A program made the translations under genes and the position numbers. A stretch of 40,145 bases of DNA from a virus. Under the pieces are notes generated by a model that was given only the letters and a program-made list of their open reading frames with translations, searched no databases and was not told the origin of the DNA. Of this stretch, positions 1-17,317 are shown piece by piece. The stretch lies in the IMG/VR virus record IMGVR_UViG_3300021509_000003, one strand, 5' to 3'. Within the stretch, counting starts at the first letter, position 1, and each line of letters begins with the position of its first letter.

Positions 1-127
1 CCTGCATTGTCCACCAAAATTGAATTTTCATTTTTAAGACCTTCAGTAGCGGACACAATAGCCTCAGCCATAGACAAATGGCCTTGCCTATTGACTGCTG
101 CTGCATCTTTTAATCTATTTAACAAAG
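1..127. repeat. Terminal direct repeat, copy 1; identical to 40019-40145 (circular closure overlap)
   Basis: Bases 1-127 match 40019-40145 exactly by direct comparison. Confidence 0.95.
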
Positions 128-587
128 TGATAGCTTCTTCTATGCCATATCCACGCATCAAAAGGTTTTGTAAGGCTTTGGCTGCGTTACCTACATCTAT
201 CAAGCCATCTGCCGATAACTGAGAGGCGGCTTGAAAAGCACGGGCCACTTCAATGCCCTTAAATTTAGCAATACTGGCCAGCCCAATCATGGCCATTTTG
301 AACTCATTAGCGCTTTTAATGCTATGTCTAAAAAATTGCTGGCCACGGTAAATAATTAAAACAGACAATACGTTTTGCAATGCCACTTCTAAATCGCTGA
401 CTTGGAGTTTGAAGCTTTGAAGTTCTCTCCTTGTCCTTCTAAAATTATTATTCAAATTTCTTGTGCTTTCACCAGCCCTTTTTGTTCTTTCTCCTAGCTG
501 CCTGATGGCAGAAGATGTTGACTTGATTTTTTCTAGCGCATCTGCTACTTTAGCTCTTATAAGCAATATTAAGGAGGTATCCGCCAT
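1..587 (-). CDS. Tail tape measure protein, N-terminal part (same gene as 38512-40145; 1-127 is the duplicated overlap)
   Basis: Minus-strand frame of ORF 38512-40143 stays open through the overlap up to ATG at 585-587, which is preceded by GAGGTG (592-597) and an in-frame stop (591-593). Whole gene is 2094 nt, 697 aa. Confidence 0.7.
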   Translation of the reverse strand, partial: MADTSLILLIRAKVADALEKIKSTSSAIRQLGERTKRAGESTRNLNNNFRRTRRELQSFKLQVSDLEVALQNVLSVLIIYRGQQFFRHSIKSANEFKMAMIGLASIAKFKGIEVARAFQAASQLSADGLIDVGNAAKALQNLLMRGYGIEEAITLLNRLKDAAAVNRQGHLSMAEAIVSATEGLKNENSILVDNA

Positions 588-798
588 GTCTCACCTCAAA
601 AAGTTTTTATGGGATGTAATAAAAGGGTTTTTTGTATTTTTCTTTTTGTATTTTTTGTTTATATATTTTGGTGCTCATCATGAAGGTTTTCTCGGTCTTA
701 TTATTATTGTGTCTGGTGTTATTGCCATCATTGGAATTGCTTTAGGGCTATTCAAAGGTATTATTCGTTTCATTGCTCGTTCTGCACGAAACGATTAA
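586..798 (+). CDS. Small membrane protein, 70 aa, two predicted TM helices (holin-like or toxin-like candidate)
   Basis: AAGGAGGT at 571-578, then ATG at 586 after a 7-nt spacer; in-frame internal start of track ORF 463-798. Product MSHLKKFLWDVIKGFFVFFFLYFLFIYFG...IIIVSGVIAIIGIALGLF is strongly hydrophobic. Sits in a ~350-bp stretch with no minus-strand ORF. Confidence 0.4.
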   Translation: MSHLKKFLWDVIKGFFVFFFLYFLFIYFGAHHEGFLGLIIIVSGVIAIIGIALGLFKGIIRFIARSARND

Positions 799-951
799 AT
801 TGTTTTGCATCTGCCCAAACTGCTGCTCTAATCAGAAGTGCCAGTTCTTTATCTCTTTTTATCGCCGATTTAACCGCTTTTTTAAAATAGCTCATTCCAT
901 ACTCCCATGCGTGAATGTGTCCCCGCTCAATCAAAAAAGATATTGCATCCT

Positions 952-1266
952 CTATTTGCCCCCCATCGCCACTGCTTCCATCTGGGTAGGCAGTTGGACG
1001 AAAAAATCTTTATTTACCTCTTTAAAGGCCTCTAAAACTTTTGTGTAGTTGTTAGCGCTTTCAACAAGATCTTCTAATTTGGTTCCTTCTGGCAATTCTA
1101 TACAATTTTTCCATACTTTGATCATTGTGTCGTAATCACCGACTAAAATATTGGCCAAAAATTCTGTCTCTTCAAACCAAATCTTGGCCTGGTAAATATC
1201 TTTTGCTGAAAGTTCCTTTACTTTTATTTCTTTACCATCAATTACAATAGTTTTTTCTAGCCTCAT
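952..1266 (-). CDS. Hypothetical protein (possible tail assembly chaperone by position, immediately upstream of tape measure)
   Basis: 104-aa ORF, last late gene before the tape measure start. No recognisable motif. Confidence 0.3.
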   Translation of the reverse strand: MRLEKTIVIDGKEIKVKELSAKDIYQAKIWFEETEFLANILVGDYDTMIKVWKNCIELPEGTKLEDLVESANNYTKVLEAFKEVNKDFFVQLPTQMEAVAMGGK

Positions 1267-1284
1267 TTACTCCTCCCTGCCTGC

Positions 1285-1647
1285 CTATTGTATATTATAT
1301 TTTTTTTCATCATAAATAATTTCTTCCTCAACTTGCATTTGCTTTTCAGCTTCTGTTACTGGGATTGCCTCAAGTAAAAACTCAATATCTTTAATAAGTA
1401 ATCCTATACAAAATTCCATAGGTTGTTGTGGGCTGTCAAAACATAATGTCCATAAATTTTCTTTTTTACCGCTTTCTTCATAGGCCTTCATAATTGTTTG
1501 CAATTTTTTATAAAATATTAATTTTTCCTTTCTACCGTGTAGATAAAATGTATATCTTCCTGTGCCTTTTGTAAGAGCATATTCTTCCTCTCCTGTTTCA
1601 GTCCTTACCCGCACCCGCCAATTCTCATTTTGTGCTATAAGTCCCAT
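1285..1647 (-). CDS. Hypothetical protein
   Basis: 120-aa ORF overlapping the upstream gene by 13 nt, suggesting an operon. Confidence 0.4.
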   Translation of the reverse strand: MGLIAQNENWRVRVRTETGEEEYALTKGTGRYTFYLHGRKEKLIFYKKLQTIMKAYEESGKKENLWTLCFDSPQQPMEFCIGLLIKDIEFLLEAIPVTEAEKQMQVEEEIIYDEKKYNIQ

Positions 1648-2285
1648 TTTTTAAAATCAAGTTGTCCATTATCCAATTTTATATATGTGCAACTATCAAG
1701 CCAGTCGCCACAATCAGCTATAATTTGACCGCTCTCTATTCTCATTATGCCTGCATAATGAGTGTGCCCTATCACTATTAGATTATAAGTATGGTGTTCC
1801 GCAAACCCGAACACATTGCTGTATATCGCACCAATTGACTTATGCCATTTTTTTCTATTATATTGTTTCCAATGTGAAGGGGGTTTGAAAAACCAAGGGG
1901 CAATCTTTTTCAAAAACCGCCACGGTGCCCAGCTACAAGCAGCGTCAAATTGATATCCATGTGTAAAAAATATATTATTAATAATAAAATAAGGAGGAGT
2001 TTCACAGCTGATGCCTAACAACTTTTGAATTGTTTTGTCTAAATCTGGGTCGTGATTTCCTTTTAGCAAATAACATTTACCACTTAAAATAAGTTTCTTT
2101 AATGCTTTCAATAATAAAGGACCTGTTTTTGATTCCATTATTTCTTTTTCTGTGCAACGCACTCTGTCTATTATGTCCCCTACACCCACTATTAAATCTG
2201 CCTCATCCAAAGCATAATCCACAAAACTTAAAAATTTTTTATTTGTATAAGGAATATGAATATCTGAAAAAGCGATTATTTTCAT
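1635..2285 (-). CDS. Calcineurin-like metallophosphoesterase
   Basis: Motifs in order: FSDIH (DxH), GVGDIIDR (GDxxDR), LKGNHD (GNHD), GHTH. Confidence 0.7.
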   Translation of the reverse strand: MKIIAFSDIHIPYTNKKFLSFVDYALDEADLIVGVGDIIDRVRCTEKEIMESKTGPLLLKALKKLILSGKCYLLKGNHDPDLDKTIQKLLGISCETPPYFIINNIFFTHGYQFDAACSWAPWRFLKKIAPWFFKPPSHWKQYNRKKWHKSIGAIYSNVFGFAEHHTYNLIVIGHTHYAGIMRIESGQIIADCGDWLDSCTYIKLDNGQLDFKKWDL

Positions 2286-2665
2286 AACATCCCTATAAAT
2301 TTAACCATATAAGGAGTGACTTGCTCTATTAACTCCTTTGTTACTAATCCAGCAAATCGTTGCCACAAACCCAGTACTTCTGCCTTTTCACATTCACTCA
2401 GTTCATCAACTGTTTTCCCCCGCACAATTTGGTCAATTCGGTCAAGACACTCTAATGCCTCAACAGGAAGTTTTTTTATATCTTCTCCCAATGCTGACCT
2501 CCAATAACATACAGAAAACTCACTGTGTTCACAGAGCACTTCTGCTAATTCATCTGCTTGAATCATTAACTTATTGTAATTTTTATTAAATTTTTTAAAG
2601 TTGCTTCCAGGACCGGCACAACCTAATCCTAATAATATGCAGAGAAAAAGTATTATTCTTTTCAT
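2282..2665 (-). CDS. Small lipoprotein (lipobox LLGLGC)
   Basis: N-terminus MKRIILFLCILLGLGCAG is a signal peptide with a lipobox cysteine. Start and stop overlap neighbours by 4 nt (ATGA). Confidence 0.55.
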   Translation of the reverse strand: MKRIILFLCILLGLGCAGPGSNFKKFNKNYNKLMIQADELAEVLCEHSEFSVCYWRSALGEDIKKLPVEALECLDRIDQIVRGKTVDELSECEKAEVLGLWQRFAGLVTKELIEQVTPYMVKFIGML

Positions 2666-3675
2666 ATTACCACCTCTATTTCTAACAATTGAATAACATT
2701 AAATATTTTATTAGCGATGGTTACTTTATCGCTACCTGCAAAGAGCAATCCAATTAAAGACAAACCATTTTTAGTCTCTTTAACAACAGCACTACCGCTA
2801 TCTCCTGGAGCACTAAATTTTTGTGGTTTGTGGTCAATCAATATCTGGTCAACAAAATACGCTATATGGCCTTCTTTATCTATTTGAACTTGACATTCGT
2901 AATCAACTGCCCTCACCAATCCTTCTGTTACTCCAGTAGTGCGGCCAGATTTCATAACGGATTCGCCAAGTTTAACCGTGTCCACAGAGATAATATGCCC
3001 CAACTCAAGCAGTTCAGGATCAGCTGTATTATTACGCAATTTTGCTATTGCACAGTCAACTTTATTCTCTGGCATTTCCCCAAATACTTCTATTCCATAT
3101 TTAAAACGAAATTTACTGCCCAAGCAGTGGGCAAGAAAATTCAAAATATGTGTAACAGCTCGTGAATATGGACAATCAGCCGTTTTTATAGGAACAAATT
3201 TAAGAAGCTCTGCTACTTTATCTTCCAGCTTCCCTCCATCATAAGGACCTGGCTGTAAAATGGCATCCCCAATTTTACCTTTATTTACATTGGCAAGAAC
3301 ATGGTTATTGGAAACTAAAACTAATTCGCCTTTATGATATGCCAGAAATCCCGCTGTGCCAGCCGTTATATCCTTATGCCCAACTGAAACGCCCATTTTA
3401 AAAGGACGATATCTTTTTGTGCGGTCAATGGCTACTAATTTTTCTGCTACTTCTAAAAAAGTAATATCTCCTACCTCCATCACATCAGTAGGGATATTTT
3501 CAACTTCTCGTGGGACAACATCTTGGGGTTTGAGTTGGTCCAGAGGCAATTTTTTTCGCACAGTTATTACCAATCCTTCACCTGTAATTTGTCCTTTTCG
3601 GACGAGCAATCCTCTGCCCATTCCCAATACATTTTTCTTTTTATAAAGCGCTTTTTTTGCTTCTTTGCTTATCAT
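2662..3675 (-). CDS. Trypsin/chymotrypsin-fold (S1) serine protease with ~110-aa N-terminal extension
   Basis: Catalytic residues in canonical order: His in VSNNHVLANV, Asp in KVDCAIAKL, Ser in APGDSGSAVV. Confidence 0.6.
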   Translation of the reverse strand: MISKEAKKALYKKKNVLGMGRGLLVRKGQITGEGLVITVRKKLPLDQLKPQDVVPREVENIPTDVMEVGDITFLEVAEKLVAIDRTKRYRPFKMGVSVGHKDITAGTAGFLAYHKGELVLVSNNHVLANVNKGKIGDAILQPGPYDGGKLEDKVAELLKFVPIKTADCPYSRAVTHILNFLAHCLGSKFRFKYGIEVFGEMPENKVDCAIAKLRNNTADPELLELGHIISVDTVKLGESVMKSGRTTGVTEGLVRAVDYECQVQIDKEGHIAYFVDQILIDHKPQKFSAPGDSGSAVVKETKNGLSLIGLLFAGSDKVTIANKIFNVIQLLEIEVVI

Positions 3676-3960
3676 TTATTCTCCTACATAATACATAGTA
3701 AAATCAAACCATTTTTCATTTCTAACATACATTGTTCCTTTTAAAGCATGCTCGTTTATTTTTTCTAAGACATCTCGCACAGGCCAATATTTATAGTGCA
3801 GTTCCATATCTTTAATTTTAAAATCTGCCAAAAATAATTCGCTCCCCCAAGGAAGAAAGTTTTTCCCACTATCTCCTTCTATTTTTTTGGTCAGGATGTG
3901 TGTTTCCCCGATGTAAACTTTCCAATATCCATCAAGTATTTTATTCATTTTATTTGACAA
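3676..3960 (-). CDS. Hypothetical protein
   Basis: 94-aa ORF tightly packed in the same operon. Confidence 0.4.
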   Translation of the reverse strand: MSNKMNKILDGYWKVYIGETHILTKKIEGDSGKNFLPWGSELFLADFKIKDMELHYKYWPVRDVLEKINEHALKGTMYVRNEKWFDFTMYYVGE

Positions 3961-4465
3961 TTTCCTTTTTAATTAACTTACCACCAGCAGCTTGAATTAT
4001 GCAGATAAATATTTCGGGCGTTACCAGCCACGGTTTGATGTGACTCCATCCAAATATCTTTACCAATGGAGCAACACAGCCTTCACTGCAAAAATATTGT
4101 CCTTCTTTTTCCTTTCTCCATTTAGTAAAAAGTCCAAAAGCCGCTATATAATCAAAATATGCTCCTTTATTGGCAAGCCCCTGCATAAAATTATGTATAA
4201 AAACTTGCTGTGCTTCAGAAACTTCCAATTTCCATATTTCATATTTACTTCCTTTAGGGTAGCCTTTTAAAAATGGCCTAATAGCCCATTTTACTTTAAA
4301 AATTTTCCAAATATTTTCTGGCCAACATTCTATGGCATAATCAGGTCCTGCCTGTTCGGCAGGAATTAAATAGGCAATGTGGCTGTATTCACTTTGTGTT
4401 TGATACTCAATTACTTTTGCCAACCAATCATTACCTTTTAAAGCAATATATTTAATTTCAGCCAT
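3950..4465 (-). CDS. Permuted papain-fold cysteine peptidase/amidase (YiiX/C92-like, NlpC/P60 superfamily)
   Basis: His-containing EYSHIAYLIP precedes Cys-containing YFCSEGCV, the permuted order of this family. Contains an in-frame copy of the 16-mer cctgcctgttcggcag. Confidence 0.45.
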   Translation of the reverse strand: MAEIKYIALKGNDWLAKVIEYQTQSEYSHIAYLIPAEQAGPDYAIECWPENIWKIFKVKWAIRPFLKGYPKGSKYEIWKLEVSEAQQVFIHNFMQGLANKGAYFDYIAAFGLFTKWRKEKEGQYFCSEGCVAPLVKIFGWSHIKPWLVTPEIFICIIQAAGGKLIKKEIVK

Positions 4466-4482
4466 TTGAAACCCGCAAAATG

Positions 4483-4519
4483 CCTGCCCGACGGCAGGCG
4501 GGCCTGCCCGCAGACGGGC
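4483..4519 (-). terminator. Two tandem GC-rich hairpins immediately 3' of gene 4519-5271
   Basis: cctgcccgacggcagg (4483-4498, 6-bp stem) and gcccg-caga-cgggc (4506-4519); a short U-tract follows on the minus-strand RNA. Confidence 0.5.
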
Positions 4520-5271
4520 TATACATTATAATCTTCTACTACATAAGGCTCACTCTGCCCGGAAGGAGTAACTAATGTTCCTTCAAATTCAAGAGTGCCA
4601 AAATCATCAGCTAAAAAGTCAATTTCTGAAGAAGGTGTAAATACTGCTTTATAGACACGCACCTTGCAGTTTTTCCCATTTGCCCAATTTTTGCCGTTTA
4701 AAACAAATGCACCCTGCACTGTAGGTTTCTTTGAACCTGCCACTTTTTGATATGTTTTTGCCTCATAGCTGTAGTCCACTTTTAAAACTTGTCCTTCTGT
4801 AATATCTCCGCTAGATAGTGCTTTTATCATTCCCATGTCGTAATCTACTACATAGTCTTCATTTTCTGTATATGTAGTGTCTCCGCCTTCATTTGTTACT
4901 ATTGGTGCTGGGTCTTTCTTCACTCTGTCGTGTGCAAGGGCTACATATTTATCTAGCTTTGCATTGATAGTCTCATCAGTAACAGAACCCTCGCTAACAT
5001 CTTGAAGTGATGCCTCTCCTAAAAGTGCCATAGCTAAAGTATCTTTATCAAAATCATCCAGCGTGAAACTTATTTTTGCAGGCTGATGTAAATAAACAGT
5101 ATCAAGTGCTTGGCCATATGTATCCTTCATTTTGGAAAGACGTTCCTTTTTTTCAGTTGCTTCCTGAATAGCAAATTTAGTAGCATTGCCAATTTGCACC
5201 CAACCTGTGCTATTGCCCTCATCGTCAAATCTATCAAACCAAAGGTCTCCAGCTCCTATAAATCCAGCCAT
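4519..5271 (-). CDS. Putative major tail (tube) protein
   Basis: 250-aa acidic Thr/Gly-rich ORF with GGAGG RBS, followed by hairpins. Size and position resemble lambda gpV-type proteins; no motif-level proof. Confidence 0.35.
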   Translation of the reverse strand: MAGFIGAGDLWFDRFDDEGNSTGWVQIGNATKFAIQEATEKKERLSKMKDTYGQALDTVYLHQPAKISFTLDDFDKDTLAMALLGEASLQDVSEGSVTDETINAKLDKYVALAHDRVKKDPAPIVTNEGGDTTYTENEDYVVDYDMGMIKALSSGDITEGQVLKVDYSYEAKTYQKVAGSKKPTVQGAFVLNGKNWANGKNCKVRVYKAVFTPSSEIDFLADDFGTLEFEGTLVTPSGQSEPYVVEDYNV

Positions 5272-5321: not shown

Positions 5322-6335
5322 CTATGGAACATAAATCCCTCCTTGTGTCTGCTTCCAAGGCACTTTCGTGTATATCATGCTATGTGGCAAGCCTCTTAAC
5401 ATGCGGTAGACTGGACTGCGATACATATTTTCACGGATTTCATCCGATGACCACGCACGGTTTTCAATAACAAGAGCAGCAATCAGGCCCTTAAAAGGGT
5501 ATTTAACAGTATGCAAAACATTTGCACCAACGAAGAGCTGTCTTTCGCTATTATCAATAGTATGTGGACCAATATTCAAACTTGCCTCTTCCAACCCATC
5601 TAAATAAACTTTCATATATGCCCCGTCATAAATCGCTGTAACATATATCAATCTCCCTTTAGGCAAAGTATATTCAACTCTTTTATATCCATCAGGATAA
5701 CCTAACCCATCAATATATAAAGAGAAATATTTTGTTACTAAATCATAATCCCCATCACCGTAAGAAGGCCTGTATTTACATACTATGTGACCTCTATCAA
5801 CTTGAGATATTACCCACACCCCTATTGTAATTCGATTAACAACAGCTAAGCTTGTGTCATCTCCGCAATCTACATAGCCACTATCTCCATCAATCTCAAA
5901 TCCCATTACCCCAGGGGTAACCATATATGGCCTTGCACCACCATGAGGCACACCGTGATTGCCGCTTCCTGACAAGTCAACCCACCCACTAGACCTACAA
6001 TCCAGTGGGTAGCATGATAAGTCCAAAACAGATTGTTTTTTACTCACTTTTTCAACTCCTATTACACCATTATTCACAATTACCTGCCAAATATCGCCAG
6101 CGAGGTCCCGAAGATAAAATTGCGTATCTGGCTGTGCTGTGGTATCCGCTAGAACCAGACGGCCATTGTCGATAGAAAGCACCCATGTAGTTGTTCCATC
6201 TTTATCGTTTATGACTGGATTAGATTCACTTTCAGCCTCCGTGTTTTCCTCTAGTTGCAGCTTGCCATTGATAACTTTCAGTTTCCAGTATTGTTCAACT
6301 GCTGCATCTTCTAGAGGATAATATTCCTTTATCAA
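5322..6335 (-). CDS. LamG/concanavalin-A-like lectin-fold domain protein
   Basis: C-terminal FKGLIAALVIENRAWSSDEIRENMY matches the LamG signature; upstream GD/ITIGVWV beta-sandwich pattern. Confidence 0.5.
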   Translation of the reverse strand: MIKEYYPLEDAAVEQYWKLKVINGKLQLEENTEAESESNPVINDKDGTTTWVLSIDNGRLVLADTTAQPDTQFYLRDLAGDIWQVIVNNGVIGVEKVSKKQSVLDLSCYPLDCRSSGWVDLSGSGNHGVPHGGARPYMVTPGVMGFEIDGDSGYVDCGDDTSLAVVNRITIGVWVISQVDRGHIVCKYRPSYGDGDYDLVTKYFSLYIDGLGYPDGYKRVEYTLPKGRLIYVTAIYDGAYMKVYLDGLEEASLNIGPHTIDNSERQLFVGANVLHTVKYPFKGLIAALVIENRAWSSDEIRENMYRSPVYRMLRGLPHSMIYTKVPWKQTQGGIYVP

Positions 6336-7825
6336 TTATTGCTCCTTCCTATTTCCACCCATCTATCTTCGACATAAACTAAGCTTAAAGTATCGTTTTG
6401 ACCCATGACAAAATCACCTGCCAATTCACTCACCCCTGCTGTATCGCTGAAATTGCATACATTAGCAGAAACATTCACAATCGTAACAACCGTTCCGTCT
6501 ATCACATCTGCCTCCCCCATAATAATGTCACAGCCATCTGCATCATTGCAGATTAACTTCACAGAGCTGGTTGAAGGAGTAAGAGTATAAGAAGCAGGAT
6601 TAGCATCGCCTGAGTCTGTAACAGTAACTTCGTCTGGGGACGAGCCGATGACTCCATTTACCTCTATACTCCTCAATTTTCTTCTGGTTGCAAAGTGGAC
6701 TAACGCCTCCCTCAATGTCACAACTTTAATACCTCTTTCCCTTGCCCAGTCGATAGTGTTTGCAATTCTCTCTTCAGTTAAAGTAGAGAGATTAGCATGA
6801 CCATACAACAAGCCAAGCTCGTTATTTGTGGCTATGGTATCCAGAAAATTTTGAAGCTCCGAATCACTCAGTTTGTCAGTTTCAAAACTTTTTCGAGGCA
6901 GGGCATAAAGCTCGTCAGTCCCAATAGGAAAAGAAACCCTTCCATCACCACCCTTACAAGCAGCCCTGTAAAAATGCGAGACCCAAACTCTCGCCTCTGG
7001 ATTCTCGCTATTGTAAGGATAAACAAAAGCTCCTATCCTCAAATCCATCTCAGACAAAATCCTTTTGGACTCATATAGCTCCTTGTATGCATAGTCCTCA
7101 TGAATCTTCAGAACTGCACCATCCGATACTTGATACGAATTCGCAAGCCCATTTTCAATCGTAACATAATTACCGTTGTCATCTGACCCTGTCCCAGTTA
7201 CCGTTACATTTTCAGGCCCTGCGTTGTCGTCCCAGACTCTGTAGACGTATCCAACTTTGATGGGGCTAAGATACTCTATATAGAGTTTGGTATCTCCTGT
7301 GTTCGCATCTTGGGTCAAATCAGTAGAATAGAAGGCAAGATGATTTAAGCCATGGCTCGCAATTTCCCAGCCCGCATCTTGCATCTCCCGCAGCTGATGA
7401 GGTAATATTCCTGACGGGCCTTCCATTCCATTGATGTTTATTGCTGCCACTGCAGGAACACCTTTCTCCTGGTGAATAGGATAAGCTTTCGTCCAGGTAG
7501 CCCTGACAGCGTCATCATAAACGATAACAAGCATAGGTCTTACCGAAAAATTCCCCAAGTTACAACACAAATCATTTATCAGCACTGAAGAATTTGAAAG
7601 AGAAAGTCGTTTCCATTCCGACGCACTGTTGCACAAGCCATCAGCAGTATCGCAGACGTATAAAACTTTATCGTCTTCTTCGTAACATAAATCACCTGCT
7701 CTACCATCTGTAATAGATGTGCAATCTGTCGTATGTGTTCTATAACGCCAAAAATACCAAGTGGCTGCACTAATAGATGTAACTAGAAACAGGATAAGAA
7801 TCAGTAAAGATAAAATTTTTTTCAT
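6332..7825 (-). CDS. Secreted polysaccharide deacetylase (CE4/NodB-homology domain) with Cys-rich N-region and C-terminal extension
   Basis: Signal/TM segment MKKILSLLILILFLVTSISA. NodB motifs IVYDDA (DD), ASHGLNH (HxxxH), VYPYNSE (xPY). Confidence 0.6.
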   Translation of the reverse strand: MKKILSLLILILFLVTSISAATWYFWRYRTHTTDCTSITDGRAGDLCYEEDDKVLYVCDTADGLCNSASEWKRLSLSNSSVLINDLCCNLGNFSVRPMLVIVYDDAVRATWTKAYPIHQEKGVPAVAAININGMEGPSGILPHQLREMQDAGWEIASHGLNHLAFYSTDLTQDANTGDTKLYIEYLSPIKVGYVYRVWDDNAGPENVTVTGTGSDDNGNYVTIENGLANSYQVSDGAVLKIHEDYAYKELYESKRILSEMDLRIGAFVYPYNSENPEARVWVSHFYRAACKGGDGRVSFPIGTDELYALPRKSFETDKLSDSELQNFLDTIATNNELGLLYGHANLSTLTEERIANTIDWARERGIKVVTLREALVHFATRRKLRSIEVNGVIGSSPDEVTVTDSGDANPASYTLTPSTSSVKLICNDADGCDIIMGEADVIDGTVVTIVNVSANVCNFSDTAGVSELAGDFVMGQNDTLSLVYVEDRWVEIGRSNN

Positions 7826-7837
7826 TTCAAAACTCCA

Positions 7838-8476
7838 TTATTGCAAAAATATTTGCATAAAACTGTCAAAACTACCTCTTGAAAGATATAGTCTGACTTC
7901 GCCTTTCTCAGTGGTAGCAATTTTGTTGTATATTTGAACTCTCAAAGCAAGTCTTTCAGTTGCAGCAATCTCAAATCCATTTGTTAAATTTAAAAACGCT
8001 AGCCCAGAGCATTTTTGATATGTAGTTGAATTAGTAGAAAAATTAGGCGTGGCTTCTCCATTTACTTTGCTTGTAAAATTGTCTGAAGCATCCATTATTC
8101 CTAAGTTGAAAACACCTTTTGTCCAATAGACGTCCCCCTCCGTACTACCAGTTCGAACAATTCCAACGCAGCAGATACAAGGAATAATCTGAGCTGGAAC
8201 TATTATTTTTCTTGGAACAGATAAGGCTAAAACAAAGGTTTTATCTATTTTTAAAGTTTCATCAGTTTCTGTAATTTCTGCTTCCTCATAATCTAAAGCA
8301 CAACTCTCTGGATTTTCTAAGTCTGATGGATTAGGGGTAGTCTTTAAAATGTAGCTTTGCCCATCTCCAAAAGGCCACTTATCATTGACCTTTTGAAGAC
8401 AAAATATTTTAAATGGAGAATCTATTTTAAATGCTTCTCCATCAAAAACTTTTCTTAATATTTCCACAGTTATCAT
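7838..8476 (-). CDS. Hypothetical virion structural protein (neck/tail region)
   Basis: 212-aa ORF in the head-tail joining region. Confidence 0.35.
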   Translation of the reverse strand: MITVEILRKVFDGEAFKIDSPFKIFCLQKVNDKWPFGDGQSYILKTTPNPSDLENPESCALDYEEAEITETDETLKIDKTFVLALSVPRKIIVPAQIIPCICCVGIVRTGSTEGDVYWTKGVFNLGIMDASDNFTSKVNGEATPNFSTNSTTYQKCSGLAFLNLTNGFEIAATERLALRVQIYNKIATTEKGEVRLYLSRGSFDSFMQIFLQ

Positions 8477-8949
8477 GTTCTTCTATCCTCCCTTATTTTT
8501 ATTTCCGCAGTCAGTAAATTCAGGAAAGTCGGATATTTTCGCAAGGTTAAATCTTCATCTACGCTAATGGTGCTGATTTCTTTAAAGAAAATAGGAGCCT
8601 CAACGGATTTAGAAATTTCCTGTCTAATTAACTGCCCTAAATGGTCTATCTCAAATTCTCCATTGTATTTTTTACCTTTGTCATCATTTTGGATATCGGT
8701 TTGAAAAATACACAGGAAAATAAAAATTTCATAATCAATTAGACGTTGCTCATTTTGTTCGTTCACTGTTCCTGTCTTCCATCCTAACAAGGCAAAAGGA
8801 CAATTTGATGTTTCAGGCAAATCATTTACATCTGCTCCTAAAAATACTTTTATGGGTTTGTTATAATAAAGTTGGCAAAAATCATCTATCAACTGGCTGT
8901 TTATTATTTGCGTTCTAATGTCATCTAAAATTTGTGTTATTCTTTTCAT
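8473..8949 (-). CDS. Hypothetical neck/tail-completion protein
   Basis: 158-aa ORF, 4-nt overlaps with both neighbours. Confidence 0.35.
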   Translation of the reverse strand: MKRITQILDDIRTQIINSQLIDDFCQLYYNKPIKVFLGADVNDLPETSNCPFALLGWKTGTVNEQNEQRLIDYEIFIFLCIFQTDIQNDDKGKKYNGEFEIDHLGQLIRQEISKSVEAPIFFKEISTISVDEDLTLRKYPTFLNLLTAEIKIREDRRT

Positions 8950-9281
8950 GTCCTGGGTCTTTCTCTCCTCTCACAGCTTAATTCCCAAATACCCATATTT
9001 TCTTTGCGGGCTAAAACTTCCCATTGCTTGGCCTGAGCATCTTCTATAAAATCATGGTTCTGTGGTTCGTTTAATCCAGCTTGGTCTAGGTCTTCTTTTT
9101 TTACCCAAATTTCAGCTTGTTCAGCAGTGGCAAGTTCTGCATCTGCATCTAATTCACGTTCAAAAATAACAGCAGTGAGAGATGTTGGAACACCGTCCCG
9201 AATATAAGAAACTGTTTGAGCTAATTCATTAGTATTAAAAAAAACAGCTATGTCTTGTTGTATTACATTTTGCAAACTCAT
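8946..9281 (-). CDS. Putative head-tail adaptor/connector protein
   Basis: 111-aa acidic ORF; call is by size and position only. Confidence 0.3.
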   Translation of the reverse strand: MSLQNVIQQDIAVFFNTNELAQTVSYIRDGVPTSLTAVIFERELDADAELATAEQAEIWVKKEDLDQAGLNEPQNHDFIEDAQAKQWEVLARKENMGIWELSCERRERPRT

Positions 9282-9562
9282 TGCCGTATCATAAAAAATA
9301 ATATCAAGTTAATTAAACCTCCGCCTGCTGTGCCTAAAAGAGCCGCTACAGCATAAACAATAGCTAGTCTTATCTCTACTTTCCGCAGACGTTTTTCTAT
9401 ATCGCCAATTTCATTTCTATTTTCTATAAAACGTACACTAGTATTTTCTAACTGCCCTTCTATCCGGCTAATTTTCACTATTAATTGCTCCTGGCCGTTC
9501 TTTAAATAACGAATATCCTCAGCTAATTGCTTGAGATAATCTTCAGAAAGATCCGGGGGCAT
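9278..9562 (-). CDS. XhlA-like small membrane protein (N-terminal coiled coil, C-terminal TM helix)
   Basis: Coiled-coil heptads then IVYAVAALLGTAGGGLINLILFFMI. ATG at 9560-9562; the track start at 9568 is a TTG two codons upstream. Confidence 0.45.
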   Translation of the reverse strand: MPPDLSEDYLKQLAEDIRYLKNGQEQLIVKISRIEGQLENTSVRFIENRNEIGDIEKRLRKVEIRLAIVYAVAALLGTAGGGLINLILFFMIRQ

Positions 9563-9583
9563 AAACAACCTCTCTTGCCTATC

Positions 9584-10032: not shown

Positions 10033-12390
10033 TTAAGCACCTGGATTCTTATATAAAGCTTTCCAGCTTATGGCTTTTGCGCCTGCTTCAATCCTTACCT
10101 TAAATTCTACGCCATCAACATGCCAGCCTTCCTTTTGTTCAAGAGTAGGGGCCTGTTTCCCATCCAGGAAGAAAATAGTTACAGTCTTTCCTTTTGGTCC
10201 AGCCACATACCAAGCAGTGCCAGCATCATCTAAGCGTCCATCACTAATAACCTTTAAGTTGTATTTACGAAGAATATTAGGTTTGGCCGATACTTTCCCA
10301 CCAGTAGTAGAAAAATCTACATATTGCATGCCAAGCAATTCTTCTACATCCATTCCATCTTCAATACGGACAATTATAAATTGTGGTCTAATGTGAAGTC
10401 TGCGTTTACCGCCAATGTCTTTTTGTTTAAGCATAGCTTTTATGGCTGCTTTAATGGTATCTGTGCTTGGGGCTGCCCCGGCGCCGGCTAAGTTACCATG
10501 ACTAGAATGAAAAAGTGCCACACCATCGCCCATAGTTGGGTTTGTGGTCAAAACTTTATACGCTAAATCGGCTATTTTTCGCCTGGCTGCTGCACCCATT
10601 TCCTTTGGGATTCCAGTTAAGGCATTTAAATCATCATTTATGATTGTTTGTCTTGTGATAGAGAAAAGCTTGCCATAGGTGGCAATTGAATACTTCTCTT
10701 GCTGTTCGCTAACCGTGCCATATTTGTATTCTGCCCCTTCTGGAATTTTATCCAGGTCATCAAATTCACCTGGGCGAACCAGTTTATTTTCTTTAAAATC
10801 GCTAACAGAACCTACACCGCACCATTCACGCCAAGTTTCTGGTTCTTCTTCAAAGCCCTGCATTAAGGCCTTGTTGGCTACATTTTGAAGGATAAGAGGA
10901 AAATCAGAGGAAGTGTGTGTAAAAGCACGTGCTACCATGTCCATTTTGCTTAAGCCTCTACATGGAATATTTGACCTGATAAGACACTCTCTAGCTATTT
11001 CTACCAGAGGACGGTTAGCAAAATCCTCAGCCCCGCTATCTTTAACCTCTTCAGCAGAGACAAAACCAACTCTTAAAAGCAATCCATTCTGAACGGCCCT
11101 ATTAAATTTATCTTTTTCATCCTTACCTGTTACAGGTTCACCAGTTTCCATCCTTCCAACTGGAGTATTTCTTTCAGCCAGTTTTTGAAGAATTAAATCT
11201 TTTGCCCTTTCCACGGTGTATTTTTGCTCAATCATCTCATCCATCAACTTCTCATCAATATTATGCATTTTGCAAAGAGACCTAATCTCCATTACTCGCT
11301 TGCGTTCTGCTTCTTCTCCTTTTTTCCTTGCTTCCTCTATCTCTTTTTGTATTTCTTCAGGATTTTTAATTTCTTCTTTTCTTTTTTCTTCTGCCATTGT
11401 TTTATCCTCCTTTTTATTTTCTTGTCCGACTGTTCGACCCACACCTACCGAGGCATCGGCAGGCACAGGAGTTAAAGAAAACTCAAAAACACTCCATCTT
11501 TGCGCTATGTATGCAGGCCCCTTAAATCCATTCCATTGCTCTTTTTCTTGCAGTTTGAGCCATTTATGAACTTGATATCCAACTGAAACGCCCCGTAATG
11601 TCTGATCTTTAATTTCTTGATATGCTTCCAGGGCCTTTTGTGTAGTGCCAAACTGAATTATGGCACGGCCTTTTTTGTCCTCTTCATCAAGCCAAATTTT
11701 TAAAGGTTTGGCCACTCTTTGATTTGGGTCATGATTTATCAAAATGCTGCCAACTTCTTTTATCGGTTTAAAATTAATAGCGTCTTTTGTATGAAGTAAG
11801 ATTTCTTTTCCATACCAGCGTTCTACTGGCTCTTCTGAGCTAAAGCTCACTTCTACAATGCGGTTTTCATCATCCAGGATGCCACGCATTTCACAAGGAA
11901 AAGTGCGCCGCATTCTGGCGTCAGTAGGAGGGAGGTCTCTTTCATCTTCACTAGTAGGAAGATATGAGTCAGCCTCAAAAGTATCTAGTTGTTTTTCAAC
12001 ATTTTTTTTAAGAGCTGGAGGTTCTTTCCCAAATTTTTCATAATATTTCACGATATGCTTATATACATCTTCTCTATCTTTATCTGGTATGTTTACTCCT
12101 TTCCTAGCCCCATTTAATACCTGCATAGCTAATCTAACGCCATGCCAAACAGCTTGTAATTCATCATTAATTACATCAGCAAATTTTAATTTATAACCTT
12201 GAAATTCTTGCTCATGTTCTGAATCATACCAAAAAAATGCCTTTCTAAATTTTTTCCAATCGATTTTATCTTTATCACCAGACCCATCGCTACTTGCCCA
12301 CTTCCGCACATTTTTTTCAGCTTCATCATGATGATATGGACGCTCTAAATCCTCACATATAGATAAATTAACAAATGGTGTTACCGGCAT
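10033..12390 (-). CDS. Fused prohead protease (HK97/S78-like) + coiled-coil scaffold + major capsid protein (HK97 fold, Mu gpT-like)
   Basis: Protease motifs INHD, LRGVSVGYQ, FEFSLTPVPADASVG; Glu/Lys-rich coiled coil in the middle; capsid-like motifs ALFHSSHGNL and RLHIRPQFIIV. One uninterrupted 785-aa frame with GGAGG RBS. Confidence 0.7.
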   Translation of the reverse strand: MPVTPFVNLSICEDLERPYHHDEAEKNVRKWASSDGSGDKDKIDWKKFRKAFFWYDSEHEQEFQGYKLKFADVINDELQAVWHGVRLAMQVLNGARKGVNIPDKDREDVYKHIVKYYEKFGKEPPALKKNVEKQLDTFEADSYLPTSEDERDLPPTDARMRRTFPCEMRGILDDENRIVEVSFSSEEPVERWYGKEILLHTKDAINFKPIKEVGSILINHDPNQRVAKPLKIWLDEEDKKGRAIIQFGTTQKALEAYQEIKDQTLRGVSVGYQVHKWLKLQEKEQWNGFKGPAYIAQRWSVFEFSLTPVPADASVGVGRTVGQENKKEDKTMAEEKRKEEIKNPEEIQKEIEEARKKGEEAERKRVMEIRSLCKMHNIDEKLMDEMIEQKYTVERAKDLILQKLAERNTPVGRMETGEPVTGKDEKDKFNRAVQNGLLLRVGFVSAEEVKDSGAEDFANRPLVEIARECLIRSNIPCRGLSKMDMVARAFTHTSSDFPLILQNVANKALMQGFEEEPETWREWCGVGSVSDFKENKLVRPGEFDDLDKIPEGAEYKYGTVSEQQEKYSIATYGKLFSITRQTIINDDLNALTGIPKEMGAAARRKIADLAYKVLTTNPTMGDGVALFHSSHGNLAGAGAAPSTDTIKAAIKAMLKQKDIGGKRRLHIRPQFIIVRIEDGMDVEELLGMQYVDFSTTGGKVSAKPNILRKYNLKVISDGRLDDAGTAWYVAGPKGKTVTIFFLDGKQAPTLEQKEGWHVDGVEFKVRIEAGAKAISWKALYKNPGA

Positions 12391-14174
12391 ATTATTCCCT
12401 CCCGCCTGCCTGTTTGCTCAACAGATAAGCCTACCTGCCTGTTCGGCAGATAGGTCTGTCCAATAGGCAAGCTATTTTTAGCCTTTTTTTCTTCTTGAGC
12501 CTTTGCCCAATTTTTGACCCATTGTTTGGCCTGGCTCACTGTCCATTTATCTTTATCAAAAATAAAAGAAATAATTTTTTTACAATCTATACAGTAACGG
12601 GCTTGTATTCCCTTTTTTTCACTGATTGTGATAGTGCGAATTTCATGACCTTTATGTTTTCCCTCTTCTCCAGGAACCGGCACATGAATTTTATTTTCTG
12701 TTACTTCAACTCGAGTTTGAATATCCTGAAATTTTACTTGCATTTGTGATATATCAGTGAGACCTAAATCATTTAAATATTGTTTTTCTTTTGCTCTTTG
12801 ATTGGCTATTTCTTGCCAATCTTTACCTTTAACAGCACATTCATCCGCCAAGCTAGTTAAACCAAGTTGCAGTTCTAACTTCTTTGCCTGAGCTTCTTTC
12901 AATGGGTCAACCCAATCAAAACCTTTGAAAATCCAGCGGTGTTTCAGCCAATTTTCAGGAGCCTTAATAAATCCCTGAACCTGCAAATAGCCGCTCACGA
13001 TGCCATATTTCACAAAGTCTTCCCAGATAGGTTGGAGAAAATATCTTTCAAGTGCTTTCCGGAATGGAAGCATATAATCCCGCAGTTCTAATTCACTATG
13101 CCGAGTAGAAGAATAATTTACATCTGATTTATCACCACTTATTTGTTCATATGAAAGATTTACGCCTCGGCCCATGCCCCGCAAAATAATTTTTACAAAA
13201 TCTGGGAAAGTGCTGCCTGGACGTTTAGGATTGATAACTTCTATTTCTTCTCCTGGGCCAAGATGTTCTACCATTCCAGGAGCTATCTCTATTTCTCTTT
13301 CTTTTGTTTCTGTATTTTGAGTGCTAGTTTGCATGCGTCCCCATATATCAGATGTCTTTATAATTATTCCAAAACAGGCAGCTACTTTGGCAGACATTAG
13401 TTCTGCTTCTAAAAGTTCTGAAAGGTGATAAGCGAGGGGAATAACAGGAGCTAAAAGTGGAATGCCCATCAATTGTCCAGGACGGCGAAAAGGAGAAAAG
13501 TGAATAATATCTTGGGCAGGAATGCGAATGGATTGTTGTTTCAAAATGAATGGATTAGAAATATCTACTTTCCAGAAATGATAAGCAACTATTTTACCTG
13601 TTTGGTCTATCTCAAAACCATTCCAGTTCCAATTATCCTTTTTAGGCGTGCCCATACCACATAAACGGCTATATTCCAGTGCTTCAAGACAAAAAGGGAA
13701 ATCTCTGGATTTATCTATAACTTTGTGGAAAAAAATGCCTCCATCTAAAAATAATTTTAAAATTGCCAGCCGTTCCAGGTCTCCAAAATGAAATTGGTCG
13801 TAATAATCGGCTACTCGTGCCCACTGTTTAAATACATTCTCAGCCTTAGAATTAAATTGTTCGTTATCTGTGAGAGCCTGTGGTGTGCTGCCTCCACCAA
13901 TCATGCGGTTAACAATCAGGTCGATACTGCCACGAACAAAAGATTCATTCCAATATAGATAATTGGCTCTAGCTCTGACTGTTTGCAGGTCTGAGAAATT
14001 ATCATTTGGACCTTCTGCGCTGGTAGTCCAATATGAAGACATGCGGTCTTTAGAAGCAGCTTTTAAATGCCTGCGAACTACTTTTTGAAGATATTCCCGC
14101 TTTGCCTTCCATTTTGGGAAAGCTGCCCAAAAAAAGGCGTCCAGGGCTTTTGAAATGGATTTTAAAATGTTCAT
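12381..14174 (-). CDS. Portal protein, lambda gpB family
   Basis: LSYEQISGDKS... and VKGKDWQEIANQRAKE align with lambda gpB VSYEQLSRNY... and KRGDDYQEIFAQQVRE. Follows a gpW-like gene with ATGA overlap. Confidence 0.85.
   Translation of the reverse strand: MNILKSISKALDAFFWAAFPKWKAKREYLQKVVRRHLKAASKDRMSSYWTTSAEGPNDNFSDLQTVRARANYLYWNESFVRGSIDLIVNRMIGGGSTPQALTDNEQFNSKAENVFKQWARVADYYDQFHFGDLERLAILKLFLDGGIFFHKVIDKSRDFPFCLEALEYSRLCGMGTPKKDNWNWNGFEIDQTGKIVAYHFWKVDISNPFILKQQSIRIPAQDIIHFSPFRRPGQLMGIPLLAPVIPLAYHLSELLEAELMSAKVAACFGIIIKTSDIWGRMQTSTQNTETKEREIEIAPGMVEHLGPGEEIEVINPKRPGSTFPDFVKIILRGMGRGVNLSYEQISGDKSDVNYSSTRHSELELRDYMLPFRKALERYFLQPIWEDFVKYGIVSGYLQVQGFIKAPENWLKHRWIFKGFDWVDPLKEAQAKKLELQLGLTSLADECAVKGKDWQEIANQRAKEKQYLNDLGLTDISQMQVKFQDIQTRVEVTENKIHVPVPGEEGKHKGHEIRTITISEKKGIQARYCIDCKKIISFIFDKDKWTVSQAKQWVKNWAKAQEEKKAKNSLPIGQTYLPNRQVGLSVEQTGRREGIICR
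12401..12460 (-). repeat. GC-rich palindromic element at the portal/capsid junction
   Basis: gcctgcctgtt (12404-12414) and cctgcctgttcggcag (12434-12449); lies in the 3' tail of the portal ORF and upstream of the capsid RBS. Confidence 0.55.
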
Positions 14175-15475: not shown

Positions 15476-17317
15476 TTATCGAAGCCACCCTGGCCTCCTG
15501 GACAACCAAGAATTTTTTAAATGGCGTCTTTGTTGTTGAATTATCTGTTGTGTCTGTTGTGGTGGAGATTCTGTTATAATAGGTTGTAAATATCGCACTT
15601 GAAGATGGTCCGCAGCACAAAAAGCATATACAGAAGCGTCTAAATAGTGATTTTGAGTTGCTACTTGCACCCACTCCTCATAATACCGCAACCCTTTTCT
15701 AATTCTTCTCTTTTCCTCAGCTATTATTTGAGTTGCGTAATCCATACCAGTAGCTTTGTGTAAATTCCAACTGCCTGATTGTCCACTTTCTATTTGAAGT
15801 TTTCTATTGATAGCATCTTTATAATAATCGGTGTTAATCAGAATAAGGCGTAATCCGCCGGGAATAGGTTTATTTTTACCTGGATATTTATCAATAATGC
15901 TTTCACGAAAAGGCACGCCACTCGTTTTAGTGCTCATGCCTTTGATTGCATATACAATACCTCTCCCATTGCGGCGCACCCATTCATAAACTTCATCTGT
16001 GCGATGACCACCGCTGTCAATAAAAGCACGCATAATAGGAATAGTTTTATCGTCCAAACGGTAGGCAGAATAAAACAAAATAAGTTCAAGTTCTTCCCAA
16101 TTATGGGCGAATCCATATCTAATCATCCATGTGGTTAAATCTAAATCATTAGCCCAGGCATGGATGACATAATAAAAACCATCTTCTTGAGTATCTACCC
16201 CAGCAGTGAGAGCCACAGCTTGTGGTGGAACTACTCCAGGGTCAAGATTTCCTCGCAAGCATAAAATTTCTTCTTCTTTACGTTTTTCTATAACTTCTTT
16301 CCAAGGCTCTGCTAAACGACTATTTACAAAATCCATCAGAAGAGCTGGATCATCTTTTGCTTCCAAAAATTCAGCCGCAATTTCTCCCCAAGTAACAAAA
16401 GGAGAATATAAACCAGATAAATGAAATCCTACCTTCCTTCTTTTTGTTGATTTTTCTTCTACAATTTCCCATTTTCCTTGGGTCAACATTTCTTGTTTTT
16501 CACTTTCTTTTATATGCGCATGACATTTTTCACATTCATACCAGGCAATATCTCGAATAATTTCAGGGTCCTTCTCTTCTTTAGGCCACTTAATGTTTTG
16601 AAATTGCAAAAATTGGTATTCTCCACAATATGGACAGGGAACAGCATAACGATATATCACATTACAAGATTGTAATTGCCTCCAAATATTCCCTGTCTCA
16701 AGAGTAGGTGTACTCGTATAAATAATTTTTTTAAAACTTTTAGTATATGTGCTGGTTCTTTTTTTTGCTAAAGCAATTGGGTCGGCTTCTTTGCCAGAAA
16801 ATGGTGGATATTTATCTATTTCATCTAAGATTAGATAGCGTATAGGACGTGAAGATAAAACAGCCGGGGAATTTGACCAGCCTAAAAAAACTGTCATAGA
16901 TTGAAATTTCATTTCTAAAAGCTGGAAGTCAAAAGCGTTTGGAGTTTTCCTATCTCGCAGAACACTACAAGCATCTATACTTGGCTGTAATCTATTTCTA
17001 GAAAAACCCTCTGCTACATCTTGAGTAGGAAAGACAAAAAGAAGTGGACCAGGGTCTTGATGTATAACATATCCAATAAAATTAATTTCTGCTTCTGTTT
17101 TCCCTAATTGAGCAGCGGCGCAAAATACAATTTCTTCTACTTCTATATCGCAAAAAGTATCCATAATAGTACGTAAATATGGAGTTCTTTCTGTTCTCCA
17201 AGGACCTGGCTCTTTTGATGATCTAGGCACAAGCACACGATAGCGGTCAGCCCATTCACTTACTGTGATACCTTCAGGCAATTGAAGAACTCTTTTTTCT
17301 CGTTCAGTCAAATTCAT
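15476..17317 (-). CDS. Terminase large subunit, lambda gpA family
   Basis: Blocks shared with lambda gpA: VSEWAD, CPYCGEYQFLQF...YECEKCHAHI (gpA ACPHCGEEQYLKF...YLCEHNAC), LYSPFVTW (gpA YSPFTTW), LDASVYAFCAA (gpA LDCFVYALAA). Confidence 0.9.
   Translation of the reverse strand: MNLTEREKRVLQLPEGITVSEWADRYRVLVPRSSKEPGPWRTERTPYLRTIMDTFCDIEVEEIVFCAAAQLGKTEAEINFIGYVIHQDPGPLLFVFPTQDVAEGFSRNRLQPSIDACSVLRDRKTPNAFDFQLLEMKFQSMTVFLGWSNSPAVLSSRPIRYLILDEIDKYPPFSGKEADPIALAKKRTSTYTKSFKKIIYTSTPTLETGNIWRQLQSCNVIYRYAVPCPYCGEYQFLQFQNIKWPKEEKDPEIIRDIAWYECEKCHAHIKESEKQEMLTQGKWEIVEEKSTKRRKVGFHLSGLYSPFVTWGEIAAEFLEAKDDPALLMDFVNSRLAEPWKEVIEKRKEEEILCLRGNLDPGVVPPQAVALTAGVDTQEDGFYYVIHAWANDLDLTTWMIRYGFAHNWEELELILFYSAYRLDDKTIPIMRAFIDSGGHRTDEVYEWVRRNGRGIVYAIKGMSTKTSGVPFRESIIDKYPGKNKPIPGGLRLILINTDYYKDAINRKLQIESGQSGSWNLHKATGMDYATQIIAEEKRRIRKGLRYYEEWVQVATQNHYLDASVYAFCAADHLQVRYLQPIITESPPQQTQQIIQQQRRHLKNSWLSRRPGWLR

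Follow-up and report, generated by a model that had tools for sequence, protein, structure and literature searches.

Accessory genes inserted in the late operons or tail regions of phages are known, for example lom and bor in lambda and cor in phi80 and N15. The insertion considered here lies at positions 952-4465 of IMG/VR virus record IMGVR_UViG_3300021509_000003, a viral DNA of 40,145 nucleotides (nt) analysed over its whole length, which we call the window. In this region seven closely packed open reading frames (ORFs) follow the gene of the major tail (tube) protein. Our preferred reading, to which we assign a probability of roughly 0.55, is that one of them is the tail assembly chaperone gene in its place and that the other six form a mobile cassette whose products would act as a set on the host envelope late in infection. 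Most likely the cassette does not assemble tails. Among the described enzymes closest to its products, those of the permuted NlpC/P60 type are lipid-directed and one, LnsA, acylates lipoproteins (PMC3142127, PMC12994826, PMC7387801), toxins of this type disrupt membranes via phospholipase activity (PMC12994826), and the plant protease NAL1 needs to assemble into a hexameric cage for its activity (PMC12012508).

The ORF at 952-1266, together with a -1 extension to 770, is by its sequence features an ordinary tail assembly chaperone G/GT with a predicted frameshift. Its zero frame holds the heptamer T_TTT_TTC, read as GA[T TTT TTC] and in agreement with the X_XXY_YYZ pattern of programmed -1 frameshifting, and the overlapping -1 ORF is open from 1009 to 770. 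The predicted fused GT product (165 amino acids, aa) matches phrog_14432 (function unknown) over residues 35-163 with an E value of 5.8e-6, a match that extends over the frameshift point, and G gives a weak match to phrog_1442 'tail assembly chaperone' (E 0.079). Both frames are located between the tail-tube and tape measure genes, with a gap of 183 nt (770 to 586) before the latter. The assignment is based on the in-frame slippery site with its -1 ORF, on a single PHROG family running across the junction and on the tape measure gene just downstream. As in the lambda-type gpG/gpGT, the pair is found just upstream of the tape measure gene and the slippery X_XXY_YYZ sequence is near the 3' end of G. 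Unlike the lambda type, the similarity of G to annotated chaperone families is only marginal, six foreign genes stand between it and the tail-tube gene, and between GT and the tape measure gene there is an antisense ORF for a membrane protein.

Long-tailed phages have gpG and gpGT arranged in this way, so the tail-assembly genes are present and normally placed, and the cargo amounts to six genes. The initial annotation, made from the sequence alone, had described seven tightly packed ORFs on one strand, and all of them were found again with exactly the same limits on the minus strand. It had also held that none looked like a canonical tail component, that the seven were all cargo and that they had displaced the tail-assembly genes; these three statements give way before the predicted chaperone, and the annotation is corrected to a G/GT chaperone plus six cargo genes rather than seven. 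Of the seven, only 952-1266 was recognised as a tail-assembly gene, through its PHROG matches and its chaperone context. The block had further been placed between the tail-tube and tape measure genes, which is right once the contig is circularised; in the linear record they are not adjacent, the tape measure gene starting at 586 and continuing at the far end. Thus the observation is partly confirmed and its earlier interpretation partly supported.

The limits of the cargo were given by a viral contig, L003, in which the tail-tube gene is 96-98% and the G and T frames are 99% identical to the window at the nucleotide level. In L003 the tail-tube stop is followed by a 25-nt spacer and then by G, and the six-gene block is not between these genes. 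By blastn of L003 against the window the breakpoints are at window 4503 and 1283, L003 5130-5482 corresponding to window 4855-4503 at 98%, and both insertion edges share a short CAGGCAGG-type microhomology. In the cultured phages Curvibacter PCA1 and Shewanella MuM16-1, which have a tail-tube protein of the same family, the tape measure gene comes directly after the tail-tube gene. The guanine plus cytosine (GC) content is 34-36% in the six-gene block versus 39-43% in the neighbouring structural genes. The six ORFs (window ~1284-4502) are an inserted accessory cassette that moves horizontally. L003 does carry a gene of the phosphoesterase family of the cassette upstream of its tail-tube gene, with only 84% identity to that of the window, so one cargo gene occupies a different site in a close relative. 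The L003 head genes (Mu-like protease or scaffold, capsid) are unrelated to those of the window, from which both genomes appear as mosaics with only the tail segment in common.

Within the window the junctions from the tail-tube gene through chaperone G are, in order, +53, -11, 0, -4, -4, -13, and +18 nt, and the gene overlaps suggest translational coupling. A promoter and terminator scan found promoter-like sites below the shuffled expectation and terminator-like sites only slightly above it. The cassette forms part of the late operon: its start and stop codons overlap, and a promoter belonging to it could not be detected. Like late-operon morons, it is a nonstructural insertion in a structural operon, without counterpart in a near-identical relative, and its GC content is lower than that of its neighbours. 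Typical morons are single genes, whereas the cassette is a coupled six-gene unit with no promoter or terminator of its own detected, is kept as a set across unrelated phages and is placed between tail-tube and chaperone genes.

The recurrence of the set was followed by searching IMG/VR and species genomes with the family of the 171-aa protein (o171) and then mapping the six proteins by tblastn. All six families, which besides o171 comprise a 94-aa protein (o94), the protease, the lipoprotein (LIPO), the metallophosphoesterase (MPE) and a 120-aa protein (o120), were recovered at full length and 35-65% identity in at least 15 other contigs, and for this reason the six ORFs are taken as genes and not as chance ORFs. 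They co-occur in L010, L014-L016, L018, L020-L026, L029, L031, and L041, with five or more different arrangements. The order is MPE-LIPO-o171-o94-o120-protease in L016, L018, L029, and L041; o94-protease-o120-MPE-c4-LIPO-..-o171 in L031; protease-o120-MPE-..-LIPO-..-o171 in L015 and L022; protease-MPE-radical SAM-c4-LIPO-o171 in L014, L021, and L023; and protease-(o212 homologue)-..-LIPO-o171 in L026. In L010 it is MPE-LIPO-o171 followed by o94 fused in frame to the protease, and in L027 and L047 the genes are dispersed as o171..LIPO..MPE. In 11 loci o171 is directly preceded by LIPO. A further small protein, rich in Cys and the seventh of the set (c4), is usually encoded before LIPO in other phages and is absent from the window.

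The other phages bearing the set differ from the window in their backbone: their portal is P22-like, and the fibres encoded upstream of the module are of the NHL-repeat or pectate-lyase-like kind. Beyond the module they share with the window only two genes, both small. The pairwise identities of o171, LIPO, and MPE correlate (Spearman 0.86-0.92 over 12 loci), and where o171 homologues fall under 36% identity the partner genes are all absent. Taking into account the five or more arrangements, at least three unrelated backbones and the one fusion, the set is better described as a module than as a tail-assembly unit or a chance cluster, and these comparisons mark it as a mobile accessory module shared by unrelated phages. 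Two suggestions of the initial annotation, that the block is cargo rather than tail machinery and that it might be an unrecognised multicomponent module, agree with its absence at this site in the near-identical tail module of L003 and with its recurrence, reordered, in 15 or more viral contigs whose structural genes are unrelated. The cargo is thus a recurring, reshuffled gene set common to unrelated phages of one habitat, and its exact boundaries can be given at a tail-tube/chaperone junction that is unbroken in the related phages examined here. No paper describing this gene combination was found.

Other genes are seen inside the modules. TnpB/IS605-like transposase genes are found in L015 (5908-6947), L020 (1408-2586), L022 (4118-5167), and L025 (5595-6644), and a gene for a radical S-adenosylmethionine (SAM) activating enzyme in L014 (5731-6417) and L022 (2082-2768). 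A protein of 94-109 aa encoded at window 28277-28606 (-), outside the cassette, has 69% identical homologues between LIPO and o171 in L025 (6708-6992) and L031 (6708-6992), which points to a wider shared pool of accessory genes.

In the o171 family H29 and C126 are invariant in 45 diverse members, the catalytic His being N-terminal to the Cys, and Y104 and E46 are kept in at least 90% of members. An additional conserved Tyr and a polar third residue are features of permuted NlpC/P60 enzymes (PMC3142127), and the predicted fold of o171 matches YiiX and BcPPNE. The likeness to the YaeF/YiiX-like enzymes (MEROPS C92) thus covers the His-before-Cys order, the fold, and the Tyr plus polar residue; in contrast to them, o171 has no Pfam match, no signal peptide and no CPBP-type LnsB partner. 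The family has 632 representatives and is phage-borne. By analogy with the permuted enzymes o171 probably cleaves or transfers lipid acyl chains, so that of the "two peptidases" initially named one stands as a protease and the other is probably a lipid acyl-hydrolase or transferase, in view of the lipid-acting permuted branch (PMC3142127, PMC12994826). In two large phage contigs, L006 (5233-6557) and L042 (9083-10549), the gene immediately upstream of the o171 homologue encodes a phosphatidylserine decarboxylase (phospholipid synthesis), and both lie amid glycosyltransferase, epimerase, GAPDH, and nucleotide-metabolism genes.

MPE contains PF00149 (E 1.8e-10), in accordance with its initial label, and the residues of its metal-binding motifs (D8, H10, D37, N77, H78, H109, H174, and H176) are invariant. 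The family profile aligns over positions 8-215 with residues 4-235 of LpxH (8qjz and others) with an E value of 1.2e-7, and the alignment takes in the lid, an insertion between the HG and GHTH motifs; the next match, to YfcE, is at 0.02. MPE thus resembles LpxH (UDP-2,3-diacylglucosamine pyrophosphatase) in its full-length profile alignment, lid included, and in all metal-binding motifs; it differs in being ~30 residues shorter and phage-encoded. Orthology to LpxH was considered and rejected: MPE scores 27.9 bits, far below the NCBIfam LpxH equivalog cutoff of 134, and in all members of the family GNHD replaces GNRD, whose Arg is specific to LpxH. By analogy, MPE is probably found at the membrane surface, through its aromatic and basic lid, hydrolysing a lipid- or nucleotide-linked pyrophosphate.

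In LIPO residues 1-23 are hydrophobic, C16 is invariant and G15 is present in at least 90% of the members, with an atypical -3 position. The lipoprotein label is retained on this signal and on the invariant Cys after Gly, and the protein is a predicted lipoprotein that would be exported to the periplasm or the outer membrane. The family has only 79 members. The mature domain, with two invariant and one near-invariant Cys, is modelled with confidence (predicted local distance difference test score, pLDDT, 82) as a helical bundle of 105 aa; the model has no specific structural relative in PDB or BFVD, and a profile search against PDB sequences gave nothing significant.

The serine protease, called S1-type from the beginning, is confirmed by Pfam Nal1_C (35.4 bits versus a cutoff of 26.1, E 8e-9) and by phrog_20754 'protease' (E 7e-60), matches PDB NAL1 chains at E 4e-5, and has a triad H125, D207, and S293 that is invariant in 20 sequences. 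The protease has more than 6500 homologues, and each of the five gene contexts looked at was phage-like; many homologues have a recorded NAL1 N-terminal domain (PF25608), which gave no match in the window protease itself. The above-cutoff Nal1_C match, the PDB sequence matches and the invariant His/Asp/Ser are shared with plant NAL1. The window protease departs from it in being viral and shorter, with only ~80 residues aligning at the sequence level, and in its partnership with a 94-aa domain, fused to it in one contig. Homologues of o94 adjoin the protease in L016, L029, L031, L041, and L042, besides the in-frame fusion at the protease N-terminus in L010; at the N-terminus of the 430-aa protease homologues the o94 domain was not found. 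By analogy with NAL1, the protease probably forms a closed cage with o94 as adaptor or regulator. It is 50-63% identical to the proteases of L004, L006, and L008 versus 34-44% to the others, which places it, on identity, in a NAL1-like subclade other than that of the proteases of most module copies. In L004 (44.5-kb contig; 7957-9421 onward) the NAL1-like protease is followed, ~6.5 kb downstream, by a gene called at 7557 residues, which matches PhageMin_Tail, cpYpsA, and helix-hairpin-helix; its product is an exceptionally long tape-measure-like protein.

Homologues of o120 with 40-58% identity are present in L015, L016, L020, L022, L024, L025, L029, L031, L041, and L048, where they mostly adjoin the protease or MPE. 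Neither o120 nor o94 matched Pfam, PHROG, or PDB sequences in profile searches. In 50,697 deposited phage genomes no tblastn match was found for o171, MPE, or LIPO, and the protease matched only one 484-kb uncultured phage and the Aeropyrum coil-shaped virus. Except for the signal of LIPO, no transmembrane segment was found in the six cassette proteins, and none of them has a lysis PHROG match. With all seven proteins, a NCBIfam scan gave no defence matches and only weak, subthreshold matches for MPE. As judged from these searches, three cassette families are without known relatives and the other three point to membrane lipids and proteolysis.

In the reading that we prefer, the products would act together on the host cell envelope late in infection and from the inside outwards; late inside-out action is favoured because the enzymes have no signal peptides and the block lies within the late operon. 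Three of the four recognisable parts, namely, the lipid-type hydrolase, the LpxH-like enzyme and the exported lipoprotein, point to membrane lipids or the envelope, and all cultured phages with a homologous tail-tube protein have Gram-negative hosts. The roles first suggested for the block, namely, envelope modification, exclusion or an accessory part in lysis, are compatible with these domains and may be considered as possibilities. The caged protease and its 94-aa partner would degrade selected host proteins, and a Gram-negative-type envelope would be weakened or remodelled, by which lysis would be helped, or receptors would be masked and other phages excluded. A more specific proposal, which we offer tentatively as a possibility, is an undescribed multicomponent phage system of the six families plus c4 that attacks or rewires the lipids of such an envelope from inside. 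This system would consist of an enzyme that hydrolyses or transfers lipid acyl groups, an LpxH-like hydrolase of lipid pyrophosphates, a caged protease together with its adaptor domain and an exported helical lipoprotein. If the set does work on the envelope, it is a candidate for a new lysis-accessory or exclusion mechanism and would give the first functional context for phage YiiX-like, NAL1-like, and LpxH-like proteins. The more specific proposal, if true, would mean a new route to membrane disruption in lysis without holin or spanins, or a new receptor-masking mechanism, moving as a unit between unrelated phages.

Several points weigh against the preferred reading. Action on the outer envelope would be indirect, because the enzymes and the orphans other than LIPO have no signal peptide. 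For o171 no Pfam family was found at E up to 0.1, and its model is of low confidence near the catalytic Cys, while MPE has the low LpxH score and the GNHD motif described above. The cassette genes are not strictly interdependent, because partial sets exist: o171 and the protease in L006; o171, the protease, and o94 in L042; o120, LIPO, and c4 in L048; and MPE alone in L003. Many module loci come from related phages of one habitat, so the co-occurrence counts are not independent. The tail-tube gene of L003 (4835-5466) is without 121 nt (window 4856-4976), which produces a frameshift and splits it into two ORFs, and L003 may for this reason be defective; the split gene would reflect either a defective phage or an assembly error. 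Finally, the module-bearing bins are labelled both archaeal and bacterial: the labels of the metagenome-assembled genomes are contradictory (Heimdallarchaeaceae, Bathyarchaeota, Methanosarcinales, Chloroflexi, and Victivallales), and L042, binned with Victivallales, is no host evidence because it is syntenic with the phage contig L006.

A strict lysis cassette or lysis accessory, in which the lipid hydrolase, replacing a holin, permeabilises the inner membrane and the lipoprotein, with the remaining enzymes, takes over from the spanins in breaching the outer membrane, seems doubtful to us. In its favour, the complete genome has no recognisable holin or spanin, the cassette is cotranscribed with late genes, and permuted NlpC/P60 toxins offer a precedent for membrane disruption via phospholipase activity (PMC12994826). 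The phages with a P22-like portal have the module directly upstream of the packaging and portal genes. This is where the lysis genes of P22 and lambda are located. However, the sole endolysin-like gene of the window, a SleB-like cell wall hydrolase (PF07486, 19176-19700) that is the likely endolysin, is ~15 kb away, the cassette encodes no transmembrane protein, and L006 has o171 and the protease plus a separate GH108 lysozyme. LIPO, with its 105-aa bundle, does not look like the short proline-rich o-spanins and lacks an i-spanin partner. The temperate character of the phage, which has an integrase and a repressor, together with the lipoprotein and the LpxH-like enzyme, would suit superinfection exclusion or lysogenic conversion, where the lipoprotein masks or alters a receptor, as do T5 Llp, Cor, and Ltp, and the enzymes alter lipopolysaccharide or lipid A, by which adsorption of related phages would be prevented. 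Elsewhere the module follows fibre or tailspike genes and precedes divergent genes, the usual slot of conversion genes, and one array of clustered regularly interspaced short palindromic repeats (CRISPR) has spacers that match both the window phage (44/44) and, with less exactness, L048 (34/37), a second type of module-bearing phage, which suggests that competing phages share a host. We consider this unlikely, since a promoter for expression in the lysogen is not detectable, LIPO is not similar to the known exclusion lipoproteins, and this reading does not account for the cytoplasmic protease or for the two orphans. The cassette shares with both kinds of system a predicted lipoprotein, late expression and, in other phages, a position next to fibre or packaging genes; unlike spanin/holin cassettes it has neither a transmembrane holin nor an i-spanin, and its 105-aa helical bundle has no similarity to spanins or to Llp, Cor, and Ltp.

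The other readings are weaker than help in lysis or exclusion. In counter-defence or host takeover, the protease would destroy defence proteins, the phosphoesterase would degrade nucleotide messengers and the cysteine hydrolase would remove conjugates; such enzyme classes are typical of phage counter-defence, and the cassette belongs to a variable accessory region and passes from phage to phage. It is an improbable explanation: expression from the late operon is too late for early defences, the nearest structural relatives of MPE are LpxH and not cyclic-nucleotide phosphodiesterases, o171 is in a lipid-directed branch, a secreted lipoprotein would have no role, and a PADLOC scan of all seven proteins, with a library that covers defence and not anti-defence systems, gave no match at E up to 0.1. 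More improbable still, the products might be tail or ejection proteins packaged in the virion and delivered at infection, as the position inside the structural operon here, the neighbouring fibre genes elsewhere and the NAL1-like proteases that L004 and L008 encode close to tape measure or fibre genes could suggest. Yet a tail module 96-99% identical exists without the cassette between its tail-tube and chaperone genes, a lipoprotein with signal peptide cannot join a virion assembled in the cytoplasm, and the genes of L006, L042, and L047 lie amid metabolic or small accessory genes. Least credence is given to a chance pile-up of functionally unconnected morons, even though there are partial sets, an unconserved gene order and interspersed transposase and radical-SAM genes; the joint presence of the six families in at least five arrangements on unrelated backbones, the o94-protease fusion, the correlated divergences of o171, LIPO, and MPE, and the overlapping, apparently coupled genes of the window all speak against it.

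The window carries a direct repeat of 127 nt at both ends, from which it is a circular contig of ~40,018 bp, and L049, an independent metagenome contig, spans the junction of the ends. It is the circular genome, of ~40 kb, of a temperate siphovirus. Nearly all its genes are on the minus strand (Table 1), with phage gene identities taken from PHROG and Pfam scans of the window proteins. The tail-tube protein is 35% identical to the protein annotated as major tail protein in Curvibacter phage PCA1, and in the circularised contig the tape measure ORF has 697 aa, starting at 586 and running on to 38512.

Table 1: Position of the cassette, the tail genes and other assigned genes in the window.
Feature	Position	Strand	Description
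Tape measure protein, N-terminal part	1-586	-	phrog_339 'tape measure', E 4.6e-6
Antisense protein	588-798	+	70 aa; two predicted transmembrane segments; between GT stop and tape measure start
-1 frame extension (predicted T part of GT)	770-1009	-	Slippery heptamer T_TTT_TTC at 1006-1000
Tail assembly chaperone G (predicted)	952-1266	-	104 aa; not cargo
o120	1285-1647	-	120 aa; orphan, sixth cassette member
MPE	1635-2285	-	216 aa; calcineurin-like phosphoesterase, LpxH-like architecture (core plus lid insertion)
LIPO	2282-2665	-	127 aa; predicted secreted lipoprotein, new family
NAL1-like protease	2662-3675	-	337 aa; trypsin-fold serine protease
o94	3676-3960	-	94 aa; small orphan domain linked to protease
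o171	3950-4465	-	171 aa; YiiX-like permuted NlpC/P60 cysteine hydrolase or acyltransferase (predicted)
Intergenic, left insertion junction	4466-4518	-	GC-rich hairpin; L003 homology stops at ~4503
Major tail (tube) protein	4519-5271	-	phrog_807 'major tail protein with Ig-like domain', E 4e-53; adjoins cassette upstream
Protease-capsid fusion	10033-12390		PHROG/Pfam scan
Portal	12381-14174		PHROG/Pfam scan
Large terminase	15476-17317		PHROG/Pfam scan
Small terminase	17320-17922		PHROG/Pfam scan
Repressor	24050-24784		PHROG/Pfam scan
Integrase	24989-26014		PHROG/Pfam scan
Tape measure protein, C-terminal part	38512-40145	-	Last 127 nt repeat window 1-127

The hairpin behind the tail-tube gene is not significant (-29.5 kcal/mol, with a z-score of only -1.4). 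The antisense ORF has a strong ribosome-binding site, AAGGAGGT, 7 nt before its ATG and overlaps the end of the T frame; its product gave no PHROG match and could be a moron, a holin-like protein or an exclusion protein. Unusual genes form a second stretch at 5322-8476 (-), between the head-tail connector genes and the tail-tube gene. Their products are a protein of 212 aa, a polysaccharide deacetylase (497 aa) that has a signal or transmembrane segment at its N-terminus, and a LamG/concanavalin-like protein of 337 aa. A 45% identical homologue of the 212-aa protein adjoins the NAL1-like protease in L026, so the cargo may reach past 952-4465. Between the capsid-decoration and connector genes, at 9278-9568 (-), there is a protein of 96 aa whose N-terminus is a coiled coil and whose C-terminus carries a transmembrane segment; it has a weak 'hemolysin' PHROG match (XhlA-like). 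A gpZ-like tail completion protein (PF06763) is encoded together with the SleB-like hydrolase at 18580-19700 (-), far from the tail module, and a ParB-like gene separates this pair from the small terminase gene, which lies downstream.

Two short CRISPR-array contigs of the same sample series, L050 (1-1950) and L051 (1-2254), have a 36-nt repeat, GTCGCAATCCCCTCAAATCGGGTCAATGTTTCTTAC, and 18 distinct spacers. No cas genes are present on these contigs, and no matching Rfam repeat family was found for the arrays. A 44-nt spacer, found twice in each array, matches the chaperone G gene in all its positions (window 1085-1128), and the spacer that matches L048, the phage with LIPO, c4, and o120, is another one of these arrays.

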